Virus record (IMG/VR): IMGVR_UViG_3300025138_000052
Location: 1 to 53,912 of that record
Length of the DNA stretch: 53,912 nucleotides
Reading direction: 5' to 3' (one strand)
Origin: a virus
Lineage: Duplodnaviria > Caudoviricetes
Shown here piece by piece: positions 7,095 to 51,949 of the stretch (the first letter of the stretch is position 1; each line of letters opens with the position of its first letter). The position numbers were made by a program, and so were the translations under genes. The notes below the pieces were generated by a model. It was not told where the DNA came from. It searched no databases and worked only from the letters and a program-made list of their open reading frames with translations.

Positions 7095-7130
7095 AAGAAT
7101 ATAAAGAATATAAAGAATATAAAGAATTTA
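7095..7130 (+). repeat. 9-bp tandem repeat (AAGAATATA x3 + AAGAATTTA) abutting a start codon
   Basis: Read directly. Confidence 0.85.
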
Positions 7131-7870
7131 TGAATTTAACAAATTACTATTGGTATTTTAAATCAGCAATACCTGAACAGGTTTGTGATGATATTATAAA
7201 GTATGGAAATAAACAACGTGAGCAAATTGCGTTGACAGGTGGTCAAACTAAAAAATTAGAAGAGTTAGAAAAAAAAGAAAAAACAAAACCAAAAAAACCT
7301 AAAAAGAAAATAAAAGTTTCAGAAGCAACTGCTCATTTATCAGAGGAAGAGTTAGACGAATTAGATCCAGCAAAAAAATTAGAACAAGAAGAATTAAATG
7401 ATTTACGAAAAAAAAGAGATTCCAATATTGCTTGGCTCAATGATCGTTGGATTTACAAAGAAGTTCAACCCTATGTACATCAAGCAAATGCTAGTGCGGG
7501 ATGGAATTTTCAATGGGATTTTTCTGAGTCTTGTCAGTTTACTAAATACAAATTAAATCAATTTTATGATTGGCATTGTGATTCTTGGGATCAACCTTAT
7601 GCAAATCCAGATAATAAAGATACTCACGGAAAGATTAGAAAGTTATCAGTCACTTGTAGTTTGTCCGATCCAAAAGAATATAAAGGTGGAGAATTAGAGT
7701 TTCAATTTAGAAATACAGATGATCCAAACCCTACTAGACCTTGTCTAGAAATTTTACCCAAAGGCTCTATTGTAGTATTTCCCAGCTTTGTTTGGCATAG
7801 AGTCAAACCCGTAACAGAAGGAACAAGATATTCTTTAGTTATTTGGAACTTAGGATATCCGTTTAAATAA
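7130..7870 (+). CDS. 2OG-Fe(II) oxygenase (prolyl-4-hydroxylase-like)
   Basis: WHCD..RKLS..Y.GGEL..FPS..WHRV.PVT.GTRYSLV.W gives the HxD..H triad plus Arg. Confidence 0.88.
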   Translation: MNLTNYYWYFKSAIPEQVCDDIIKYGNKQREQIALTGGQTKKLEELEKKEKTKPKKPKKKIKVSEATAHLSEEELDELDPAKKLEQEELNDLRKKRDSNIAWLNDRWIYKEVQPYVHQANASAGWNFQWDFSESCQFTKYKLNQFYDWHCDSWDQPYANPDNKDTHGKIRKLSVTCSLSDPKEYKGGELEFQFRNTDDPNPTRPCLEILPKGSIVVFPSFVWHRVKPVTEGTRYSLVIWNLGYPFK

Positions 7871-7871
7871 T

Positions 7872-8567
7872 ATGTCTATTAAAGATCCACTATCTACCTC
7901 CCTTTATTTTCAATCGCCTATCTATCATGTAGAAGCACCTGAATGGGTTAAGTCTACTAATAAAGTTTGTGATACTTATATTAATCAAGCAAGAAAAAAT
8001 TTAAAAAAAACAATTAAGGATAGAGAGAAAAAAACTGGTAAAAAAATAGGAGATCATGGATTAAGTTATCATTCTACTTCTTTGATTGGAGACCCTAAAT
8101 TAAAAGAATTACAAAAATATATCGGAGCCACTAGTTGGAATGTGATGGATCATATGGGTTATGATATGTCAGGGTATGAATTATTTTGGACAGAATTTTG
8201 GGTTCAAGAATTTGCAGATAAAGGTGGTGGACATCACGATAGTCATATTCATTATGATAATCATGTCTCTGGATTTTATTTTTTAGAATGTTCTGAAAAT
8301 ACTTCTATGCCTGTGTTTAATGATCCTAGACTTGCTAAAGTTATGACTCAATTACCATTAAAAAAACCAGAAGAGATTTGTTTTGGAAGTGATAAAATTC
8401 ATTACAAGCCAAAGCCTGGAACTATGATCTTTTTCCCTGCATACTTAGAACATCAATATACCGTAGATGATGGAGTAGAACCTTTTCGATTTATACACTT
8501 TAACTTACAAGCGGTGAGGAAAATGATCACTAATACTTTACGAAGCCCAACCAAGGAGAAAAAATGA
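7872..8567 (+). CDS. Putative 2OG-Fe(II) oxygenase (TIGR02466-like)
   Basis: W..HxH..SG..Y..F.DPR..FPAYLEH..FN. Confidence 0.75.
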   Translation: MSIKDPLSTSLYFQSPIYHVEAPEWVKSTNKVCDTYINQARKNLKKTIKDREKKTGKKIGDHGLSYHSTSLIGDPKLKELQKYIGATSWNVMDHMGYDMSGYELFWTEFWVQEFADKGGGHHDSHIHYDNHVSGFYFLECSENTSMPVFNDPRLAKVMTQLPLKKPEEICFGSDKIHYKPKPGTMIFFPAYLEHQYTVDDGVEPFRFIHFNLQAVRKMITNTLRSPTKEKK

Positions 8568-9220
8568 GTTTTGAGAAAAATGGATACACAGTAATTAAAA
8601 AAGCTATCTCCCCTGAGATTGCTGATTTTGTATACAAATACTTTTTATTAAAAAGAAAAGTAGCTAGAACCTTATTTGACAACAAATACATTTCACCGAT
8701 GACCGAATATTTTGGTGTATGGAATGACGCCCAAGTTCCTGAAACTTATTCTCATTATGGAGACATTGCCATGGAAACTTTACTTACCGAAGTAAAACCT
8801 ATTATGCAAAAACAGACAGGTTTAAAATTAATTGAGACGTATGCATATGCACGAATTTATAAAAAAGGAGATATTTTGCATAAACATAAAGATAGGTTTA
8901 GCTGTGAAATATCTACCACTTTAAATCTAGGTGGAGACGATTGGCCTATTTATATTAACCCAAATAAAAAAGAAGGTGAAGTAGATAATAAAACAGGAGC
9001 TTATAAGCCTTCTAAATCCAAAGGAACTAAAGTAAAATTAAATCCTGGGGATATGTTGGTGTATCGAGGCAATATTTTAGAACATTGGAGAGATGCATTC
9101 AAAGGAACGGATTGCGGACAAGTATTTTTACACTACAATAACAAAGCAACTAAAGGCTCTGAAGATAATAAGTTTGATAAAAGAGAACATTTAGGACTTC
9201 CCGCTTGGTTTAAAAGATGA
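8564..9220 (+). CDS. Putative 2OG-Fe(II) oxygenase
   Basis: R.Y..GD.L.KHKDR.SCEIS.T..Y.G..EHWR..QVFLHY. Confidence 0.75.
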   Translation: MSFEKNGYTVIKKAISPEIADFVYKYFLLKRKVARTLFDNKYISPMTEYFGVWNDAQVPETYSHYGDIAMETLLTEVKPIMQKQTGLKLIETYAYARIYKKGDILHKHKDRFSCEISTTLNLGGDDWPIYINPNKKEGEVDNKTGAYKPSKSKGTKVKLNPGDMLVYRGNILEHWRDAFKGTDCGQVFLHYNNKATKGSEDNKFDKREHLGLPAWFKR

Positions 9221-20767: not shown

Positions 20768-21259
20768 ATGAAACTTTCAAAAAATTTCACTAAAGCAGAG
20801 CTGTGCAAGTCCCAAACAGCTACCAGAATGGGCCTAAACAACAACCCCACGGACGATCAGACCGAAAATTTGAGATTGCTCTGTGAGAGGGTCCTACAGC
20901 CCATTAGAGACCATTTCAACCAAATAGTGAGTATATCATCGGGGTTTAGGGACCCTATTTTGTCCCGTAAGATAGGTAGCTCTGAAAAATCACAGCACTG
21001 TCGTGGCGAAGCGGCAGATTTTGAAATATTTGGAGTACCTAATCATGAGGTCAGCGATTGGATTAAACAGAATTTAATGTTTGACCAGTTGATATTAGAA
21101 TTTTATAAGCCAGGTGAACCTAACTCAGGATGGATACACGTGAGCTACTGTAAAGAAATTAATAGAAACAGAAAAGAATATTTAATGGCACTTCTAATAG
21201 ATGGAAAGGTAACTTACAAACCAGTCTCGGGACTATCCACTGATCGTTATGTCAAATAA
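20768..21259 (+). CDS. Endolysin, peptidase M15A family
   Basis: SSGFR, SQH.RGEAAD and WIHVS zinc motifs. Confidence 0.88.
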   Translation: MKLSKNFTKAELCKSQTATRMGLNNNPTDDQTENLRLLCERVLQPIRDHFNQIVSISSGFRDPILSRKIGSSEKSQHCRGEAADFEIFGVPNHEVSDWIKQNLMFDQLILEFYKPGEPNSGWIHVSYCKEINRNRKEYLMALLIDGKVTYKPVSGLSTDRYVK

Positions 21260-21812
21260 CATACTTTTACATAAACATTTAATTATTAGAGCTGAGGTCA
21301 ACAAACCGCCTTTATTAGTATCCTATTTAGAAACTTGGCTTAAAAATTTTATTGAATCTATTAAGATGAAATTATTTATGGGACCTTTTGTAAAATATTG
21401 TTCAATGCCTGGTAATAGAGGTGTTACTGCTGTTGCAATTATAGAAACTTCACATATTGCTATGCACGTTTGGGATGAAGTATCTCCTGCACTTATGCAA
21501 TTTGACGTATACTCTTGTAGTAATATTGATCCAAAAGAAATATGCAATAAGATTAAAAAAGATTTTGATATCGTTAAAATTGAATATAAATTTTTAGATA
21601 GAGAAAAAAATTTAAGAGATATAGCAGGAGGAACTTTTAAACCTTTGTCCAATTACAATGAGAAAATGAAAACGAAAAAGGAAAAGATATTGTTTAAAAG
21701 TAGAAAAGAAGTAGATATTAATGGAAACGGCACCACTGGATATACGATCAAGGAAGGTCCTCAAAAAGGAAGAGTTCTTAAACACATTATAATTCCTAGT
21801 AAAAATACTTAG
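21249..21812 (+). CDS. speD: Pyruvoyl-dependent decarboxylase proenzyme (AdoMetDC/SpeD family)
   Basis: G.T..I.ETSHI.MH.W.E..DVYSC; substrate uncertain. Confidence 0.78.
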   Translation: MSNNILLHKHLIIRAEVNKPPLLVSYLETWLKNFIESIKMKLFMGPFVKYCSMPGNRGVTAVAIIETSHIAMHVWDEVSPALMQFDVYSCSNIDPKEICNKIKKDFDIVKIEYKFLDREKNLRDIAGGTFKPLSNYNEKMKTKKEKILFKSRKEVDINGNGTTGYTIKEGPQKGRVLKHIIIPSKNT

Positions 21813-28629: not shown

Positions 28630-28802
28630 AAAACGATAACACTTTTTTACAATTAAGATTAAAGCTACAGGCTGCCATTGAAAGAGTAGAGAAACTTTAT
28701 AATGAAAATCAGGTAATGAAAAGAAGATTACTTAAATATGAAAAACGTAATATGACTCATTACAATAATAAGAAAGGTTTAAATGAAAGTACCGGCGTTT
28801 AA
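28626..28802 (+). CDS. Small coiled-coil protein
   Basis: ATG at 28626, fills the gap before the polymerase. Confidence 0.5.
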   Translation: MKNDNTFLQLRLKLQAAIERVEKLYNENQVMKRRLLKYEKRNMTHYNNKKGLNESTGV

Positions 28803-30639
28803 AGCACAAACCGAGTGGGTATTACCCACCGAATTTCCTGATTTAAGAGATGTTGACGAAATTGCAATTGACTTAGAAACAAGAGATCCAGATTTAATTA
28901 AAAAAGGATCGGGAGCAATTATAGGTAACGGAGAAGTTATTGGGATAGCTGTAGCAACAGCTCATTACAAAGGTTATTTTCCTATCAACCATCACGGTGG
29001 TGGAAACATGGACCGCAAGAAAGTTCTAGAATGGTTTCAAGATATTTTAAAATCAACTTCTACTAAAATATTTCACAATGCAATGTATGATGTATGTTGG
29101 ATCAAGGCAATGGGACTAAAGATTAATGGTAGAATTGTGGACACTATGATTGCCGCAGCAGTGACCGATGAAAATAGATTTAGATATGATCTTAATAGTT
29201 TATCATGGAAGTATAATGGTTATGGCAAAAGTGAGGCAGGTTTAAGTGAAGCTGCAGCAGAGTGGGGCATAGATCCAAAATCTGAAATGTATAAATTACC
29301 GTCTCTAAGTGTTGGTGCTTATGCTGAACGTGATGCCGAAGCAACATTTGATTTATGGCAACATATGAAGAGAGAGGTAATAGAACAAGACTTGGAATCT
29401 ATTATGAATTTAGAAACAGATTTATTTCCATGTTTAGTTGATATGAGGTTTAAAGGTGTACGAGTAGATGTAGAAGCTGCACATAAACTCAAGAAAACTT
29501 TGATAGAAGAGGAGAAAGATATACTAACTGCAATAGAAAAGGAAACGAATGTTAGACCACAGATTTGGGCCGCAAGAAGTATATCAGAAGTATTTGAGAA
29601 TTTAAAAATACCTTTTGATAGAACAGAAAAAACAGATGCACCTAGTTTTACTAAGAACTTTTTACAAGAACATGAGCATCCTGTAGTTAATATGATTGCA
29701 AAAGCTAGGGAGGTTAATAAAGCACATACCACTTTTATAGATTCTATTTTACGTTATGAACACAAAGGTAGAATTCATGCAGAGATAAATCAATTAAGAA
29801 ATGCAGGGGGTGGAACTGTGACTGGTAGATTCTCGTATCAGAATCCAAACTTGCAGCAAATTCCAGCAAGAAACAAGGACCTAGGACCTAAAATTAGATC
29901 CTTATTTATACCCGAAGAAGAATGTAAATGGGGATGTTTTGATTACTCTCAACAAGAACCACGATTAGTAGTACACTATGCTTCGTTATATAAATTACCT
30001 TCCGTGTATGATGTGGTAGATGCTTACAAGGATGATCCAGATTCAGACTTTCACCAGACAGTGGCCGACATGGCGGAGATAAAAAGAACACAAGCTAAAA
30101 CAATTAACTTAGGTTTGTTTTATGGAATGGGTAAAGGTAAATTACAAGCAGAGCTAGGAGTATCTAAAGACAAAGCTGCCGAATTGTTTGATACCTATCA
30201 CTCAAGAGTACCTTTTGTTAAACAGTTGATGGAGAAGGCTACTAATAGGGCTCAGGACCGTGGACAAATCAGAACCTTATTAGGTAGACTATGTAGATTT
30301 CATTTATGGGAACCAAATAGTTATGGAATGCATAAGTCTATGACACATGAAGATGCACTCCAGGAACATGGACCAGGGATTAAAAGAGCCTACACTTACA
30401 AAGCTTTAAATAAATTAATTCAAGGTAGTGCAGCGGATATGACTAAAAAAGCTATGTTGGATTTGTATAATGAAGGTATTATACCACACATACAAATTCA
30501 TGATGAGTTGTGTGTATCAATTGAAAATGACGCGCAAGCAAAAAAGGTAGTTGAGATAATGGAACAAGCTGTTACATTGGAAGTACCAAATAAAGTTGAT
30601 TACGAGCACGGTACTAACTGGGGAACTATAAACAACTAA
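28783..30639 (+). CDS. polA: Family A DNA polymerase with 3'-5' exonuclease (Leu762 type)
   Basis: DLET, HNA.YD, TGRFS..PNLQQIP, DYSQQEPR, AKTINLGLFYG, IQGSAAD, IHDEL. Confidence 0.95.
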   Translation: MKVPAFKAQTEWVLPTEFPDLRDVDEIAIDLETRDPDLIKKGSGAIIGNGEVIGIAVATAHYKGYFPINHHGGGNMDRKKVLEWFQDILKSTSTKIFHNAMYDVCWIKAMGLKINGRIVDTMIAAAVTDENRFRYDLNSLSWKYNGYGKSEAGLSEAAAEWGIDPKSEMYKLPSLSVGAYAERDAEATFDLWQHMKREVIEQDLESIMNLETDLFPCLVDMRFKGVRVDVEAAHKLKKTLIEEEKDILTAIEKETNVRPQIWAARSISEVFENLKIPFDRTEKTDAPSFTKNFLQEHEHPVVNMIAKAREVNKAHTTFIDSILRYEHKGRIHAEINQLRNAGGGTVTGRFSYQNPNLQQIPARNKDLGPKIRSLFIPEEECKWGCFDYSQQEPRLVVHYASLYKLPSVYDVVDAYKDDPDSDFHQTVADMAEIKRTQAKTINLGLFYGMGKGKLQAELGVSKDKAAELFDTYHSRVPFVKQLMEKATNRAQDRGQIRTLLGRLCRFHLWEPNSYGMHKSMTHEDALQEHGPGIKRAYTYKALNKLIQGSAADMTKKAMLDLYNEGIIPHIQIHDELCVSIENDAQAKKVVEIMEQAVTLEVPNKVDYEHGTNWGTINN

Positions 30640-31007
30640 TGTTTTTAATAGACACTTATTTAGATAAAAGCAAAATACAAGGTATAGGAGTGTTTGCAAA
30701 TGAAAACATAAAAAAAGGTCAATTGATAAAAGAAGTTAGACCAGATTTTGAAATAGAATTTAATAAAGATAACCTTCCTAAAATACCTTTGGCTCTTGCA
30801 AAATTTATTGACACGCACGGTTATGAAAGAGAGTTGGGATCTAAAATTTTAGTTATGGGAATTGATAATGAAAAATATTTAAATCACAGTAAGGATCCAT
30901 CAGTTAATGATGAGGGTATTGCCTTAAAAAATATAAAAATAGGCGACGAAATAACTATAGACTATAGGGAATTTGATGATAGCATTGAAAAATTATGTCT
31001 TACTTAA
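30639..31007 (+). CDS. SET-domain protein (putative lysine methyltransferase)
   Basis: S.I.G.GVFA..I.KG, YLNHS..P, ALKNI..GDEITIDY. Confidence 0.85.
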   Translation: MFLIDTYLDKSKIQGIGVFANENIKKGQLIKEVRPDFEIEFNKDNLPKIPLALAKFIDTHGYERELGSKILVMGIDNEKYLNHSKDPSVNDEGIALKNIKIGDEITIDYREFDDSIEKLCLT

Positions 31008-31651: not shown

Positions 31652-31951
31652 ATGAACATTGCAGAACTATTCAAAAAGAATTTTGTATTAGTGCCGGTTA
31701 TAGCATCTGTGCTGTTCGGAACGTTTACTGGTGTTAAGTACGTAGTTAATTTAACAGACACAATTAATTCTAATCAAATTCAGATAGTAAATCTTCAAAG
31801 AGATTTAAAAGTTGCTGCAAATAAAATTACAGATCAAAACACAAGACTAACTTCTGCGGAATCTACGTGGCAGATGGCAGAGAATCTTTATCGACAGCTC
31901 GCCGACCAGGTACGGGAACATAGCTACGATATAAAAGATTTAAATAGGTAG
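31652..31951 (+). CDS. Membrane-anchored coiled-coil protein
   Basis: N-terminal TM plus heptad repeats. Confidence 0.6.
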   Translation: MNIAELFKKNFVLVPVIASVLFGTFTGVKYVVNLTDTINSNQIQIVNLQRDLKVAANKITDQNTRLTSAESTWQMAENLYRQLADQVREHSYDIKDLNR

Positions 31952-31955
31952 TCAT

Positions 31956-32483
31956 ATGGAGAGTCTTAGGATGAACTACAAATTTACTGCATTATTAATT
32001 ATAATGATAACACTACTAGCTTTTTTTGGTGGACCTGCACATAGTAAAAACGAGTATCTTAATGAGTATGGTGCAAGATGTGGAGATTTTGAAACTAGAG
32101 TAGAGAAAGAAGATAGAAATAATGATTATAGACATTATAGTAACAACAATAATTACGATAGTGATAGTGAAAATTATAGATTAAGTTTTACTTACAGAAA
32201 ATATTTAGGTGTAGATTGTAAAACTATAAAAGAAAATGTAGATTTAAAACAACAACTAGAGTTGATGAAGATGTGTGGTAGAGTTAATAACAATCCTAGT
32301 CTTGCACAAAATAAAAATTTTAAATTATTAGTATCAAAGTGTAGAGGTGTTACCCCAATAACTGATAGAGATAGACCAGATAATTCTAAAAGTGCCTGGG
32401 ATGATTTAAAAGAGACTTATAAAAAAGAAAACCCAGATATTAAATTAATGGGTGATAAATTTATAGGACCTAAAAATGAATAG
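31956..32483 (+). CDS. Exported protein with signal peptide
   Basis: Hydrophobic leader ending PAHS; four Cys; true start may be 31971. Confidence 0.6.
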   Translation: MESLRMNYKFTALLIIMITLLAFFGGPAHSKNEYLNEYGARCGDFETRVEKEDRNNDYRHYSNNNNYDSDSENYRLSFTYRKYLGVDCKTIKENVDLKQQLELMKMCGRVNNNPSLAQNKNFKLLVSKCRGVTPITDRDRPDNSKSAWDDLKETYKKENPDIKLMGDKFIGPKNE

Positions 32484-32664: not shown

Positions 32665-32873
32665 AATTTATATTAATTATTTATGCCTGCTCTGTTGTTT
32701 ACGGAGCTTGTGGTGAAGGGGTACAGGACTTAGAATTGTATGATACTCATAAAGAATGTATGTTAGCTGGCTATCAAACATCTATTGATGCTATTAATAC
32801 TTTAGAAGAATCTTTGATTAATCAAGAAAAAATATTTTATAAATTTAATTGTTTATTCACATCTAATTCTTAG
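32661..32873 (+). CDS. Small exported Cys-containing protein
   Basis: MKFILII..C..C..EC..C. Confidence 0.55.
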   Translation: MKFILIIYACSVVYGACGEGVQDLELYDTHKECMLAGYQTSIDAINTLEESLINQEKIFYKFNCLFTSNS

Positions 32874-32908
32874 TGTGATAAATAAAAGTATAACAATAAG
32901 GATAACTC

Positions 32909-33061
32909 ATGGGACAACCACTAACAGGCAAATGCAGTAAATGTGCAGAAGATTTTTTTATAACAGATAATCAATTTTTTTGTGATAAATGTAAACCAAA
33001 GAAAAAAGAAACACTTGATGATCTTGACAAAGACAGCGATGAATGTTTAAGTTGTCAATAA
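32909..33061 (+). CDS. 50-aa Cys-rich peptide ending DSDECLSCQ (not in ORF track)
   Basis: AAGGA RBS; three CxxC pairs; TAATG-coupled to the next gene. Confidence 0.65.
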   Translation: MGQPLTGKCSKCAEDFFITDNQFFCDKCKPKKKETLDDLDKDSDECLSCQ

Positions 33062-33276
33062 TGAAAGTTCAATTTAATAAATTAGACATCGTGCATGGTA
33101 TATGTCCTACTTGTGAGGAACAAGTTTTGCTAATAAGTCTTAGTATGGATTTTTATAAGTGTGTCGAATGTGGTGCAGAACTACAGCAACATGTTAATGG
33201 AAAGATTAGTTATTTACCTGTCGTACACACCACCAAAAAAAAGAACTCTTTAGTGAAAAATTTGTTTGAAGAATAA
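33061..33276 (+). CDS. Zinc-ribbon protein
   Basis: CPTC..CVEC; ATG at 33061. Confidence 0.65.
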   Translation: MKVQFNKLDIVHGICPTCEEQVLLISLSMDFYKCVECGAELQQHVNGKISYLPVVHTTKKKNSLVKNLFEE

Positions 33277-33404
33277 TGGCTAAGACTAAAGGAGACGAGT
33301 TTACACCTAGAACAAAAAACCGTAAACGTCCGGGAAGACACACAAAAAGCCTTAATAAAAGCCAAAAATTGAGCTATAAAAAATATCGAGGACAAGGGCG
33401 TTGA
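33276..33404 (+). CDS. 42-aa basic peptide ending KKYRGQGR (not in ORF track)
   Basis: TAATG-coupled; MAKTKG..RKRPGRH.K.LNK..KKYRGQGR. Confidence 0.65.
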   Translation: MAKTKGDEFTPRTKNRKRPGRHTKSLNKSQKLSYKKYRGQGR

Positions 33405-34052: not shown

Positions 34053-34090
34053 TTGACATTACAGTTATATAGGATATATCCTATATTATA
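34053..34090 (+). promoter_or_regulatory. Promoter with a perfect 20-bp palindromic operator
   Basis: TTGACA at 34053; ATATAGGATATATCCTATAT at 34067-34086. Confidence 0.7.
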
Positions 34091-34114
34091 TAAACAAATG
34101 AAAGAGGTAAACAA

Positions 34115-34288
34115 ATGACCGATATAACTAAATATAAAAATATATCTTTAAAACATATAGACTATAATCTGATCGATAAAATAAGAAGGGTTTTAGTTCC
34201 TAATATGATTCTAAGTAGATCACAAACAGTAAGCATTATTATTAATGAGAAAGCGAAGAAATTAAATGGAAAACTTAAAAAAGCCTAA
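34115..34288 (+). CDS. 57-aa candidate ribbon-helix-helix regulator (not in ORF track)
   Basis: GAGG RBS; KYKNISL strand, helix, then SRSQTV.III helix. Confidence 0.55.
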   Translation: MTDITKYKNISLKHIDYNLIDKIRRVLVPNMILSRSQTVSIIINEKAKKLNGKLKKA

Positions 34289-34457
34289 AGCAATATGCCC
34301 TACGTGTAGGGGAAATGGTTATATTAAAGTACCTTTTGAGTTAACTAGAGAATATGTGACTGCACAATGTACGGTGTGTCATAGTCAAGGTGAGATTGAC
34401 GAAGATAAGATTAAAGATATTGTCATAGACTCAGATGGTTTTCACAGCCTACAATAA
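34266..34457 (+). CDS. DnaJ-type zinc finger protein
   Basis: CPTCRGNG..CTVCHSQG. Confidence 0.65.
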   Translation: MENLKKPKAICPTCRGNGYIKVPFELTREYVTAQCTVCHSQGEIDEDKIKDIVIDSDGFHSLQ

Positions 34458-35730: not shown

Positions 35731-35904
35731 ATGAAAAAGAAAATATATACTAAAGAAACGTACAACAAGATTTTGCTGATACATAGCCAGTGGATGAAAA
35801 AAAATGAATATGATAATTGGAAAGAATGTGAGCGAGCAAGTAAAGACCGATTGAAATTGAGTTTTGCAGATAGAGTTAAGAAGCCGAATAATGTTAATAA
35901 ATAA
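35731..35904 (+). CDS. 57-aa hypothetical protein (not in ORF track)
   Basis: Open frame overlapping the exonuclease start; no clear RBS. Confidence 0.35.
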   Translation: MKKKIYTKETYNKILLIHSQWMKKNEYDNWKECERASKDRLKLSFADRVKKPNNVNK

Positions 35905-36571
35905 ACTTTATCAATACCCTAAGTCTATGCGTTCTGTGGTTAATGGTGGCAGACACTATGATATAGACGGTGATAAATTACCGAGCGTGACTACGATACT
36001 TTCAGCTTGTCAGACGGATGAAAAGAAAGCTTCTCTTGCAGCCTGGAAAGCTAGGTTGGGAGAAAAAGCTGCGGATGAGGTCAGGGATACTGCAGCCACT
36101 CGTGGAACCGCTATGCACACGTTTCTAGAGGGATATATTGACGGCACCGGGCACATGGACCTAACACCCCTGGGTAGACAAGCGGCTGTCATGGCCAACA
36201 AGATTATAGAACAAGGGCTCGGGGACCTGGAAGAAGTGTGGGGGCAAGAAGTAACTTTATATTACCCTGACCTCTATGCAGGGGCCACGGATATTGTAGG
36301 CATATATGATGGACAACCTGCAATTGTAGATTTTAAACAAAGCAACAAACCAAAAAGAAGAGAGTGGATAACTGATTATTTTGAACAGCTAGCAGCTTAT
36401 GCAATGGCACATAATCAAGTCTATGATACTAAAATACAGTCTGGAGTCATTTTAATGTGCACAAAAGATTATCTATTTCAGAAGTTTGAGGTGTCTGGAA
36501 TGGAATTTGTAAGGCATAAACACTCTTTTTTACGTAAAATAGACCAATATTATAAAATTGTATCTTCTTGA
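35891..36571 (+). CDS. PD-(D/E)xK exonuclease (MGME1/Cas4-like)
   Basis: PSVTTIL, RGT.MH, E..YAG.TD, IVDFK, QL.AY. Confidence 0.85.
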   Translation: MLINKLYQYPKSMRSVVNGGRHYDIDGDKLPSVTTILSACQTDEKKASLAAWKARLGEKAADEVRDTAATRGTAMHTFLEGYIDGTGHMDLTPLGRQAAVMANKIIEQGLGDLEEVWGQEVTLYYPDLYAGATDIVGIYDGQPAIVDFKQSNKPKRREWITDYFEQLAAYAMAHNQVYDTKIQSGVILMCTKDYLFQKFEVSGMEFVRHKHSFLRKIDQYYKIVSS

Positions 36572-41956: not shown

Positions 41957-42004
41957 AAACTACATCTAGTATGTCAAGCATTATCTACATACTAGATGTA
42001 GTGG
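41957..42004. promoter_or_regulatory. Tandem NrdR-box-like pair (also a 16-bp perfect inverted repeat)
   Basis: AAACTACATCTAGTAT-N16-ATACTAGATGTAGTGG versus consensus acaCwAtATaTwGtgt. Confidence 0.55.
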
Positions 42005-42057
42005 CTTGTGGATTAAAATTTTATTGGGCGGGCCCACCCTTTTTTTTATTTAAGAAG

Positions 42058-42150: not shown

Positions 42151-42501
42151 ATGCCACTAGAAGTACACTACGTAAACGACAAATCTTGGAACCCGGAAAC
42201 TGAAAAGTTTGACGATCCAAAATTAAGAAATGAGGCGGATGATATTGGTCACATATTAATGTTGATTGGTATTACTGAGGTAACTGATCAGACAATCCCA
42301 GAGATCATAATCAGAAGCATGATTTTGGACAGGGTGTATAATAACAAGGAAAGAAAACCTGAAGTGTTCACTGCTCCTTTACAAAGACACATAGGTTTAA
42401 AAATTGAGGGAAAATGGGCGGGCAACGAGACTCGTTGGAAGTTCACATCTCGTATTGCCAAAGGTATGATGCATGATATTGCTAACACGGTGTTGAACTA
42501 A
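42151..42501 (+). CDS. Hypothetical early protein
   Basis: Tandem ATCCTA at 42102/42112 and AACAGAAAGG leader. Confidence 0.65.
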   Translation: MPLEVHYVNDKSWNPETEKFDDPKLRNEADDIGHILMLIGITEVTDQTIPEIIIRSMILDRVYNNKERKPEVFTAPLQRHIGLKIEGKWAGNETRWKFTSRIAKGMMHDIANTVLN

Positions 42502-51324: not shown

Positions 51325-51561
51325 ATGGACGACATGAGTTATGTAGACAAGATAAGAAAAGTTATTAAAATGAGACATGATGATATAGTTTCTGCTCTAG
51401 CATCAGGAGCTGTTGACAACATGGAAAAATATCAATATATGTTAGGACAAATACGAACATATCAGTATTTAAGTCAGGAAATATCCAACCTGTTAAACAA
51501 AAAGGAGCAAAATGAACAAGACGGAACCATTATTAACCTCAACTCAAAACCAAAAAATTGA
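51325..51561 (+). CDS. Conserved small protein preceding GroES
   Basis: GAGG RBS; G......Y....G.I pattern. Confidence 0.65.
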   Translation: MDDMSYVDKIRKVIKMRHDDIVSALASGAVDNMEKYQYMLGQIRTYQYLSQEISNLLNKKEQNEQDGTIINLNSKPKN

Positions 51562-51949
51562 GTTACCCGATAAGAAATTAGTAGGTGTAAAACCTATAGA
51601 AAAAAAATCAGATGAAATTGGGAAAACTCCAAAGCCTACGGGTTGGAGACTTTTAGTTTTACCTTTTAAACAAAAAGAAAAAACTAAAGGTGGAATATTA
51701 TTATCCGATGTAACAGTAGAAAGATCTCAAGTAGCATCAACTTGCGGTCTAGTTTTAGATTTGGGCCCACACTGTTATGATAAAGAAAGATACCCAGAAG
51801 GTCCCTGGTGTAAGAAAGGTGATTGGATTATATTTGCAAGATATGCAGGATCACGAATTAAAATAGATGGGGGTGAAATAAGACTTCTCAATGATGATGA
51901 AGTTTTAGCAACTGTGGAAAACCCTGAAGATATATTCCACGAATTTTAA
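51512..51949 (+). CDS. groES: Co-chaperonin GroES (Cpn10)
   Basis: P.G.R.LV..KTKGGI.L..GD...F.RYAG..I..LNDDEVLA. Confidence 0.9.
   Translation: MNKTEPLLTSTQNQKIELPDKKLVGVKPIEKKSDEIGKTPKPTGWRLLVLPFKQKEKTKGGILLSDVTVERSQVASTCGLVLDLGPHCYDKERYPEGPWCKKGDWIIFARYAGSRIKIDGGEIRLLNDDEVLATVENPEDIFHEF

Follow-up and report, generated by a model that had tools for sequence, protein, structure and literature searches.

What might a 50-residue phage peptide do whose last residues copy the redox tail of ribonucleotide reductase (RNR), the enzyme that sets the supply of DNA precursors? The question is raised by a small open reading frame (ORF) in the IMG/VR virus record IMGVR_UViG_3300025138_000052, of which the whole stretch of 53,912 nucleotides was analysed (hereafter the window). 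On the reading that best accounts for the sequence data, the peptide would be a free-standing mimic of the redox tail of the host class I RNR alpha subunit (NrdA of SAR11 bacteria), presented on a four-cysteine zinc ribbon through an acidic linker. A previous reading of the window's letters, called here the sequence-only reading, had described a 50-residue ORF with a ribosome-binding site and TAATG coupling to the next gene, and this was borne out at the exact coordinates 32909..33061. The translated peptide is MGQPLTGKCSKCAEDFFITDNQFFCDKCKPKKKETLDDLDKDSDECLSCQ, and the elements of its gene are as follows.

32909..33061, + strand: ORF of the putative tail-mimic peptide (family 1), from the ATG at 32909 to the stop TAA at 33059-33061 (included); 50 amino acids (aa).
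32897..32902, + strand: ribosome-binding site TAAGGA, 6 nt before the ATG at 32909, a direct reading of the sequence.
32933..32992, + strand: zinc-ribbon-like part with four cysteines (C9-x2-C12 ... C25-x2-C28).
33002..33031, + strand: acidic linker KETLDDLDKD (residues 32-41), predicted with low confidence as a helix.
33035..33058, + strand: terminal tail SDECLSCQ (residues 43-50), invariant; residues 45-50 are those that end SAR11 class I NrdA.
33061..33276, + strand: next ORF downstream, a 71-aa zinc ribbon (CPTC...CVEC) whose ATG (33061-33063) overlaps the stop of the peptide as TAATG.

The six cysteines of the peptide are distributed over two knuckles (C9/C12 and C25/C28) and a terminal CxxC (C46/C49). 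The latter is spaced and placed like the redox pair of RNR alpha, within the last ~10 residues of the chain (C46-L-S-C49-Q50-stop), on a free tail and 17 residues after the last knuckle of the ribbon. The coding pattern for ECLSCQ-stop is found at a single site in the window and in none of 100 shuffles. No significant Pfam or PHROG family was obtained for the peptide, the best matches being the Zn-ribbon region of HypA in Pfam (E 0.021; 15.3 bits against a cut-off of 28.9) and phrog_10481 in PHROGs (E 0.06). A PDB sequence search returned chance-level zinc-finger knuckles only (best E 0.0066). There was no Pfam match to a redoxin of the thioredoxin fold (thioredoxin, glutaredoxin or NrdH), for which a chain of 50 aa is too short.

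A word-based protein search revealed three clusters of family 1, and a scan of species-representative genomes gave six loci, five of them members placed on short low-GC contigs of metagenome-assembled genomes (MAGs) or single amplified genomes (SAGs); the remaining locus (L054) proved to be a HypA and was discarded. A scan of viral contigs gave 47 confirmed loci, and 53 loci were examined in all. The frame ends ...SDECLSCQ-stop in 47/47 viral loci, and the last eight residues (SDECLSCQ) are unchanged in all 53. At the DNA level the last 16 codons appear in 32 distinct versions among these 53 loci, each of the eight tail codons being present in 2-6 synonymous forms, AGY/TCN serine switches included. 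This synonymous-only variation indicates purifying selection on the tail as protein and rules out a DNA- or RNA-level cause for the conserved 3' end. The conserved ORF, the purely synonymous changes in its last eight codons and the absence of the motif from the shuffles add up to more than chance. The alignment of 31 distinct proteins (51-84% identity to the window peptide) shows invariant columns at C9, C12, C25, C28, F16 and F24 and then along nearly the whole C-terminal third, including the linker residues L36, L39, D40 and K41, the rest of the ribbon being variable. The two cysteine pairs lie ~12-13 residues apart and the second knuckle is either CxxC or CxxxC. The terminal motif, which the sequence-only reading had expected to be kept among homologues, turned out to be the most conserved part of the family.

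When 1.84 billion representatives were searched with a profile, 453 matches reached E <= 0.001, most of them zinc-finger-like repeat arrays covering profile positions 2-30 (the ribbon) only. From the 150 matches listed, thirty sequences that were short or matched over one stretch were fetched. Twenty of them end in ECLSCQ, and the other ten (P0005, P0006, P0008, P0009, P0026, P0029, P0038, P0071, P0075 and P0091) are read-through, cut at contig ends, variant or tail-less. A few relatives of the ribbon thus occur without the tail.

The AlphaFold2 (AF2) model of the peptide, built with the family-1 alignment, has a mean predicted local distance difference test score (pLDDT) of 65. Short strands are seen at residues 5-8 and 15-18, residues 1-30 being at pLDDT 70-79, and are followed by the low-confidence helix of the linker (residues 32-41). 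Residues 42-50 have no secondary structure (pLDDT 52-54), as expected of a flexible tail, and the sequence DDLDKDSDE is acidic. The model fits a zinc ribbon with a flexible tail and proves neither. A complex prediction between SAR11 NrdA 1-616 (its own tail removed) and the peptide, run without controls, scored 0.01 against a mark of 0.32 and is evidence neither way.

The window belongs to a pelagiphage of the HTVC023P type. When 6 kb around the gene were compared with phage records, 14 matched, and 11 of these were Pelagibacter phages; HTVC027P was the best match (70.4% identity over 29% of the query) and 023Pt_psg01 the next one. The genes of this 53.9-kb virus contig (completeness estimate 86%) are of the pelagiphage type, with a primase, helicases, PolA, a PurM-like protein, an exonuclease, a terminase, an SU10-type portal and tail proteins, and this content agrees with the assignment.

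Bacterial genomes were reached through a member contig found in an alphaproteobacterial MAG; 301 genomes of its class were sampled, 273 of them with an RNR alpha match. Several genomes of 1.1-1.4 Mb encode a 617-646-aa NrdA ending ...YEECLSCQ-stop, and identical or near-identical proteins are named ribonucleoside-diphosphate reductase alpha of Pelagibacteraceae or Candidatus Pelagibacter. Within the order of one of these genomes (G120), ECLSCQ-stop is coded exactly once in 89 of 151 genomes, the reversed-pattern control giving 4 hits in the same 151, and the site is the end of nrdA in every genome checked for its place (~25 read further). In 20/20 tails fetched from this order (646-aa class I NrdA) YEECLSCQ-stop follows a variable hydrophilic linker, and nrdA is followed by nrdB in the three genomes read at length. 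A SAR11 16S probe found its target in 5/5 genomes of the ECLSCQ type (0-2 mismatches) and in none of five other class I genomes. The last six residues of the peptide and its stop (ECLSCQ-stop) are therefore those of SAR11 class I NrdA; the comparison with candidate-host NrdA C-termini that the sequence-only reading had proposed gave identity over these six residues in all 20 host tails. Other class I alpha subunits of Alphaproteobacteria end ...PEDCLTCSA, ...EECLSCSI or ...EECIACAV. In all the class I alpha ends read, an acidic stretch precedes a CxxC placed within three residues of the end, and the rule given in that earlier reading (an acidic tail with a terminal CxxC) also holds for the other NrdA tails read, flavobacterial and alphaproteobacterial.

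Two minor points concern this order. Two RNR types are seen within this one GTDB order of 0.7-1.5-Mb genomes when G306, G308, G310 and G312 (loci L082-L089) are compared with G120 and others; the alternation of the two types in the genome listing of the order suggests two families with different RNR classes. A likeness of the peptide linker to the NrdB C-terminus was also considered and rejected, since SAR11 NrdB ends ...WAEAFN, ...WVEAFS or ...WVEAFDFTR, with no resemblance by eye.

The host ending is carried by a second kind of free peptide. In viral contigs YEECLSCQ-stop was detected at 69 loci (L131-L199), which correspond to 57 free peptides and 12 full-length viral NrdA genes. The free peptides (family 2) are 51-54 aa long and Cys/His-rich, and appear in 27 distinct versions (56 closed frames and one running off its locus). 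Their consensus is MMVKCKTCGHGCHC..DKIDSEHYTPLMDLCECKKC.HE..KEIEYEECLSCQ, with an ending ...EIEYEECLSCQ (e.g. L141:1366-1524) that is constant by construction of the search and for which no conservation is claimed. Before the tail, 7 Cys and 3 invariant His are found. Pfam matched none of three family-2 peptides, and AF2 gave a low-confidence model (mean pLDDT 59.8). The two families resemble each other over the last knuckle and the tail only (26 residues by BLASTP; 20 columns by hhalign, at 64% probability), the N-terminal part of family 2 showing no detectable similarity to family 1. They share their size, their phage group (PolA of 6/6 family-2 records is 53-71% identical to that of the window), a location downstream of PolA (usually shortly downstream in family 2), the terminal motif and the absence of RNR from their records. 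They differ in the N-terminal metal-binding part, and family 2 retains the host Tyr at position -8. No record was seen with both families, a single ECLSCQ-stop site being present in each of three family-2 records and in the window. A tblastn search with family-1 or family-2 peptides against 50,697 phage records gave no match, an outcome that short queries or low-complexity filtering could explain. By pattern search HTVC027P and 023Pt_psg01 have no ECLSCQ-stop site, their syntenic stretches contain no such ORF, and they carry neither family.

No match to the RNR alpha family PF02867 was seen in the window, in three further family-1 records (one 91% complete), in 14 family-2 records (one 96% and one 89% complete), or in HTVC027P and 023Pt_psg01. 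The 12 viral records with their own NrdA of this end contain one ECLSCQ-stop site each, and three of them are 99-100% complete. A phage thus carries either NrdA with the tail or the tail alone, a pattern confounded by lineage, as the two sets are different phage groups. A detached tail serving a tail-less phage RNR was rejected, because no RNR alpha was found in the carrier records examined. A parallel probe of the viral contigs for the flavobacterial-type end, DDCLMCGS-stop, gave 16 frames, all of them viral NrdA and none a short free peptide; 14 of the 16 are open to the edge of the locus (1.5-kb flank) and two are closed at 261 aa. These last two (L116 and L117), viral NrdA with a ...DDDDCLMCGS end, have an open frame of just 261 aa before the stop, and the gene may be split or interrupted.

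The known chemistry of class I RNR gives this likeness a possible function. The C-terminal cysteine pair of the alpha subunit returns the active site to its reduced state, and thioredoxins in turn reduce the pair (PMC11903788; PMC5704485), the disordered class I tail being vital for the interaction with redoxins (PMC5704485). Thioredoxin can dock on alpha for this purpose, and the mechanism of re-reduction is said to vary from organism to organism (PMC11903788). In the peptide, the two terminal cysteines would be free thiols and not Zn ligands, and would be reduced by host thioredoxin or glutaredoxin, like the tethered tail of NrdA. The peptide would then enter the active-site channel of NrdA and thereby act on the re-reduction half of the RNR cycle. 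That it acts somewhere in the re-reduction pathway is, to judge from its sequence, likely; whether it supports host RNR activity there, as an extra trans-acting shuttle or adaptor, is an even call. We lean towards a scenario in which the induced host RNR would be kept turning over for phage DNA synthesis and not blocked; the host's production of DNA precursors is a probable target of the peptide. The proposal of a free RNR-tail mimic on a Zn-ribbon scaffold, made in the sequence-only reading, is supported by the identity with the host tail, the conservation of the tail, the second scaffold and the RNR-less carriers.

Several observations weigh against this assignment. The tail of family 1 departs from the host tail at position -7 (Asp for Glu, a conservative change) and at position -8 (Ser for the invariant Tyr), and the additional invariant residues (L-x-x-L-D-K) have no counterpart in NrdA. 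A comparison of the peptide with proteins of 89-2000 aa gave one candidate with shared short words and none at E <= 10, a weak negative. A tethered tail works at a very high local concentration, so that a free peptide would need affinity for a docking site; in class II RNR, according to a passage of PMC5704485, a separately expressed cysteine-rich domain added in equimolar amount failed to restore activity. The peptide is dispensable in this phage type, since HTVC027P replicates with neither family. We infer SAR11 as the host from kinship to cultured pelagiphages alone. In the host order 62 of the 151 genomes (loosely, about half) are without an ECLSCQ site; four of five such genomes checked have a ~1200-aa NrdJ-like enzyme with a Cys-rich, zinc-finger-like end, and the SAR11 16S probe found no target in five motif-less genomes. 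Finally, NrdA of two flavobacterial assemblies that contain family-1 members ends ...DDCLMCGS, unlike the tail of the peptide. These members (L055, on a Flavobacterium sp. SAG scaffold, and L050, on a Winogradskyella MAG contig) lie in a pelagiphage-like gene order (PolA, PurM-like, ..., peptide, M15 peptidase, zinc ribbon); the flavobacterial labels may reflect mis-binning or co-sorting, or the phage group may not be confined to SAR11.

Peptides modelled on the tail of an RNR subunit are well-known inhibitors of the enzyme. The strongest alternative, although an unlikely one, is a competitive blocker: the peptide would fill the site of NrdA's own tail, or form a dead-end mixed disulfide, and slow the host RNR. 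The purpose might be, for example, to stop host replication as the phage uses nucleotides from degraded host DNA, a use that the nucleases of the window (exonuclease phrog_298, 35864-36571) make plausible. The evidence for mimicry is identical for blocker and shuttle, and a mimic that differs at -7 and -8 and has extra invariant residues could bind more tightly than the native tail. Against inhibition stand the carrier phages, which have no RNR of their own, and the behaviour of an RNR-less relative: upon infection of HTCC1062 by HTVC027P (same phage type, without nrd genes) host nrdA rises 3.1-8.9-fold and nrdB 2.5-5.8-fold at 9-15 h (PMC12753301), that is, in mid and late infection. This induction makes dependence on the host RNR a likelier need than its shut-off. 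Furthermore, RNR-bearing phages with the same NrdA end do without the peptide, as would be expected of a substitute more than of an inhibitor. The counterpoints are indirect and confounded by phylogeny. Support of the host enzyme is preferred over blockade because the phage type depends on and induces that enzyme, and because of these RNR-bearing phages without the peptide.

A further alternative, considerably less probable, places the target elsewhere. The peptide could act on host thioredoxin or glutaredoxin as a decoy or adaptor, a pseudo-substrate that captures the redoxin or redirects it, e.g. to a phage process. Redoxins recognise the flexible acidic RNR tail (a statement made in PMC5704485 citing Berardi and Bushweller), and a Pfam scan of 61 window ORFs yielded neither a thioredoxin nor a glutaredoxin or NrdH, so that any reductant must come from the host. 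However, nothing points to a phage client of the redoxin, and the either/or pattern with viral RNR is not predicted.

It is comparably improbable that all six cysteines serve as metal ligands, at two sites or in one cluster, of a small zinc protein that binds DNA/RNA or protein and whose likeness to NrdA is meaningless: six Cys in 50 residues, the many small zinc ribbons of phages (the neighbours at 33061-33276 and 34266-34457 included) and an AF2 model too modest to place metals would allow it, but the six terminal residues and stop form a single-copy motif found nowhere else in the host genomes, the invariant part is the tail and not the ribbon, and a structural role for all six is unlikely because the same tail stands on NrdA and on a different scaffold that already has its 7 Cys and 3 invariant His.

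The preferred reading, a free tail mimic, can be compared with known systems. With the tail of class I RNR alpha (NrdA/NrdE; ...YEECLSCQ in SAR11) the peptide shares a terminal CxxC after acidic residues, the lack of predicted structure and the identical last six residues. It differs in that it is not the end of an RNR chain, has its own ribosome-binding site, stands on a four-Cys zinc ribbon in an RNR-less phage and is changed at -7 and -8. The corresponding tail cysteines are Cys754/Cys759 in the E. coli enzyme. In yeast, the C-terminal domain of Rnr1 acts across the dimer and Sml1 is a competitor, and peptides from the R2 C-terminus are inhibitors. These cases resemble ours in that an RNR tail works on the active site of another polypeptide and competitors at tail-docking sites regulate RNR; they differ in being eukaryotic or herpesviral, with no homology. 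The tail cysteines of the B. subtilis class I enzyme are C695/C698 (PMC11903788). A Cys-rich zinc finger closes most dimeric class II RNRs; four of its Cys are proposed Zn ligands and two form the electron shuttle, and electron transfer between subunits is possible (PMC5704485; PMC9669993). This cysteine-rich domain of NrdJ (Loderer et al. 2017, PMC5704485; Burnim et al. 2022, PMC9669993) follows the same logic as the peptide, six Cys arranged as a zinc module and a redox pair. In contrast, it is fused to NrdJ, its redox pair lies in or beside the folded finger and, in a passage of PMC5704485, it is described as having no redoxin interaction. The NrdJ ends of the host order show no likeness to the peptide by eye.

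The new element is that a known functional module, the redox tail of RNR, would be encoded by viruses as a free peptide with a zinc-binding scaffold. In a literature search that covered mostly titles and abstract openings, no paper on a free-standing or phage-encoded RNR alpha tail was found. A soluble natural protein of 50 residues showing the end of the host RNR tail would be a new viral handle on nucleotide metabolism, and the presence of the same end on two scaffolds suggests a general strategy of RNR-less phages. Somewhat below an even chance, in our estimate from the sequences, is the full proposal that the carriers recruited the eight-residue SAR11 RNR redox tail at least twice onto unrelated zinc-binding mini-proteins, making a diffusible shuttle or adaptor that enters the active site of the host enzyme and controls the re-reduction half-cycle. 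If so, the peptides would be the first protein effectors on record to act on RNR in trans through the alpha tail site, in the least understood half of the cycle (PMC11903788), and the phages would control the deoxynucleoside triphosphate (dNTP) supply of the ocean's most abundant bacterium. The carrier pelagiphage type is reported as the most abundant in the ocean, with ~7.6% of viromic reads (PMC12753301). Therefore, with carriers that abundant and infecting SAR11, any effect on dNTP supply would matter, on a large scale, for burst size and the turnover of carbon.

Small + strand genes are closely packed around the peptide gene, where a scan for promoters and terminators gave matches at chance level only. 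The 71-aa zinc-ribbon ORF that overlaps its stop is present beside the family-1 peptide in 31/53 loci. It is in turn followed, at 33276-33404, by a very basic 42-aa peptide (phrog_17967, E 3.3e-12) that is conserved in 26 related loci, mostly directly behind the zinc-ribbon ORF. Further features of the window, from the Pfam and PHROGs scans, are the following.

28783-30639: PolA (Pfam/PHROGs scan).
34266-34457: small zinc-ribbon neighbour (Pfam scan).
35864-36571: exonuclease phrog_298 (Pfam/PHROGs scan).

Directly after PolA, at 30639-31007, lies a 122-aa SET-domain protein (PF00856, E 2.6e-9, above the cut-off), i.e. a domain of the lysine-methyltransferase type in a pelagiphage. Genes of the auxiliary type are placed within 7130-9220, 21249-21812 and 51512-51949; they encode two 2-oxoglutarate-Fe(II) oxygenase-like proteins, a ferrochelatase by its PHROGs label, an S-adenosylmethionine decarboxylase domain (PF02675, E 3.3e-15) and a GroES-like protein (phrog_3188).

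A survey of transcripts and reads found the stretch or a part of it in 20 of 21 listed runs (13 studies), 12 of which contain at least half of its words. These 12 are seawater, marine or brine metagenomes, for which the label 'DNA?' is a guess. The sole firm RNA run covers 31900-32385 and 34087-34300, not the peptide ORF. Two runs whose RNA label is guessed cover 32953-33114, and one run that is probably DNA covers 32730-32996.

The regulator NrdR was present in 5/5 SAR11-type genomes. With an NrdR-box consensus and up to two mismatches allowed, six box-like sites were counted in the window against 3.24 +/- 1.61 expected; 7 of 100 shuffles reach six, so that the number is not above chance. Two of the sites form a pair (41957-41972 and 41989-42004, two mismatches each) with 32 bp between their starts; together they make up the arms of an inverted repeat, which is followed by a GC-rich hairpin and a T run (42027-42048) upstream of the ORF at 42151-42501. 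In genome G120 the host nrdA has one box-like site 35 bp ahead of it.

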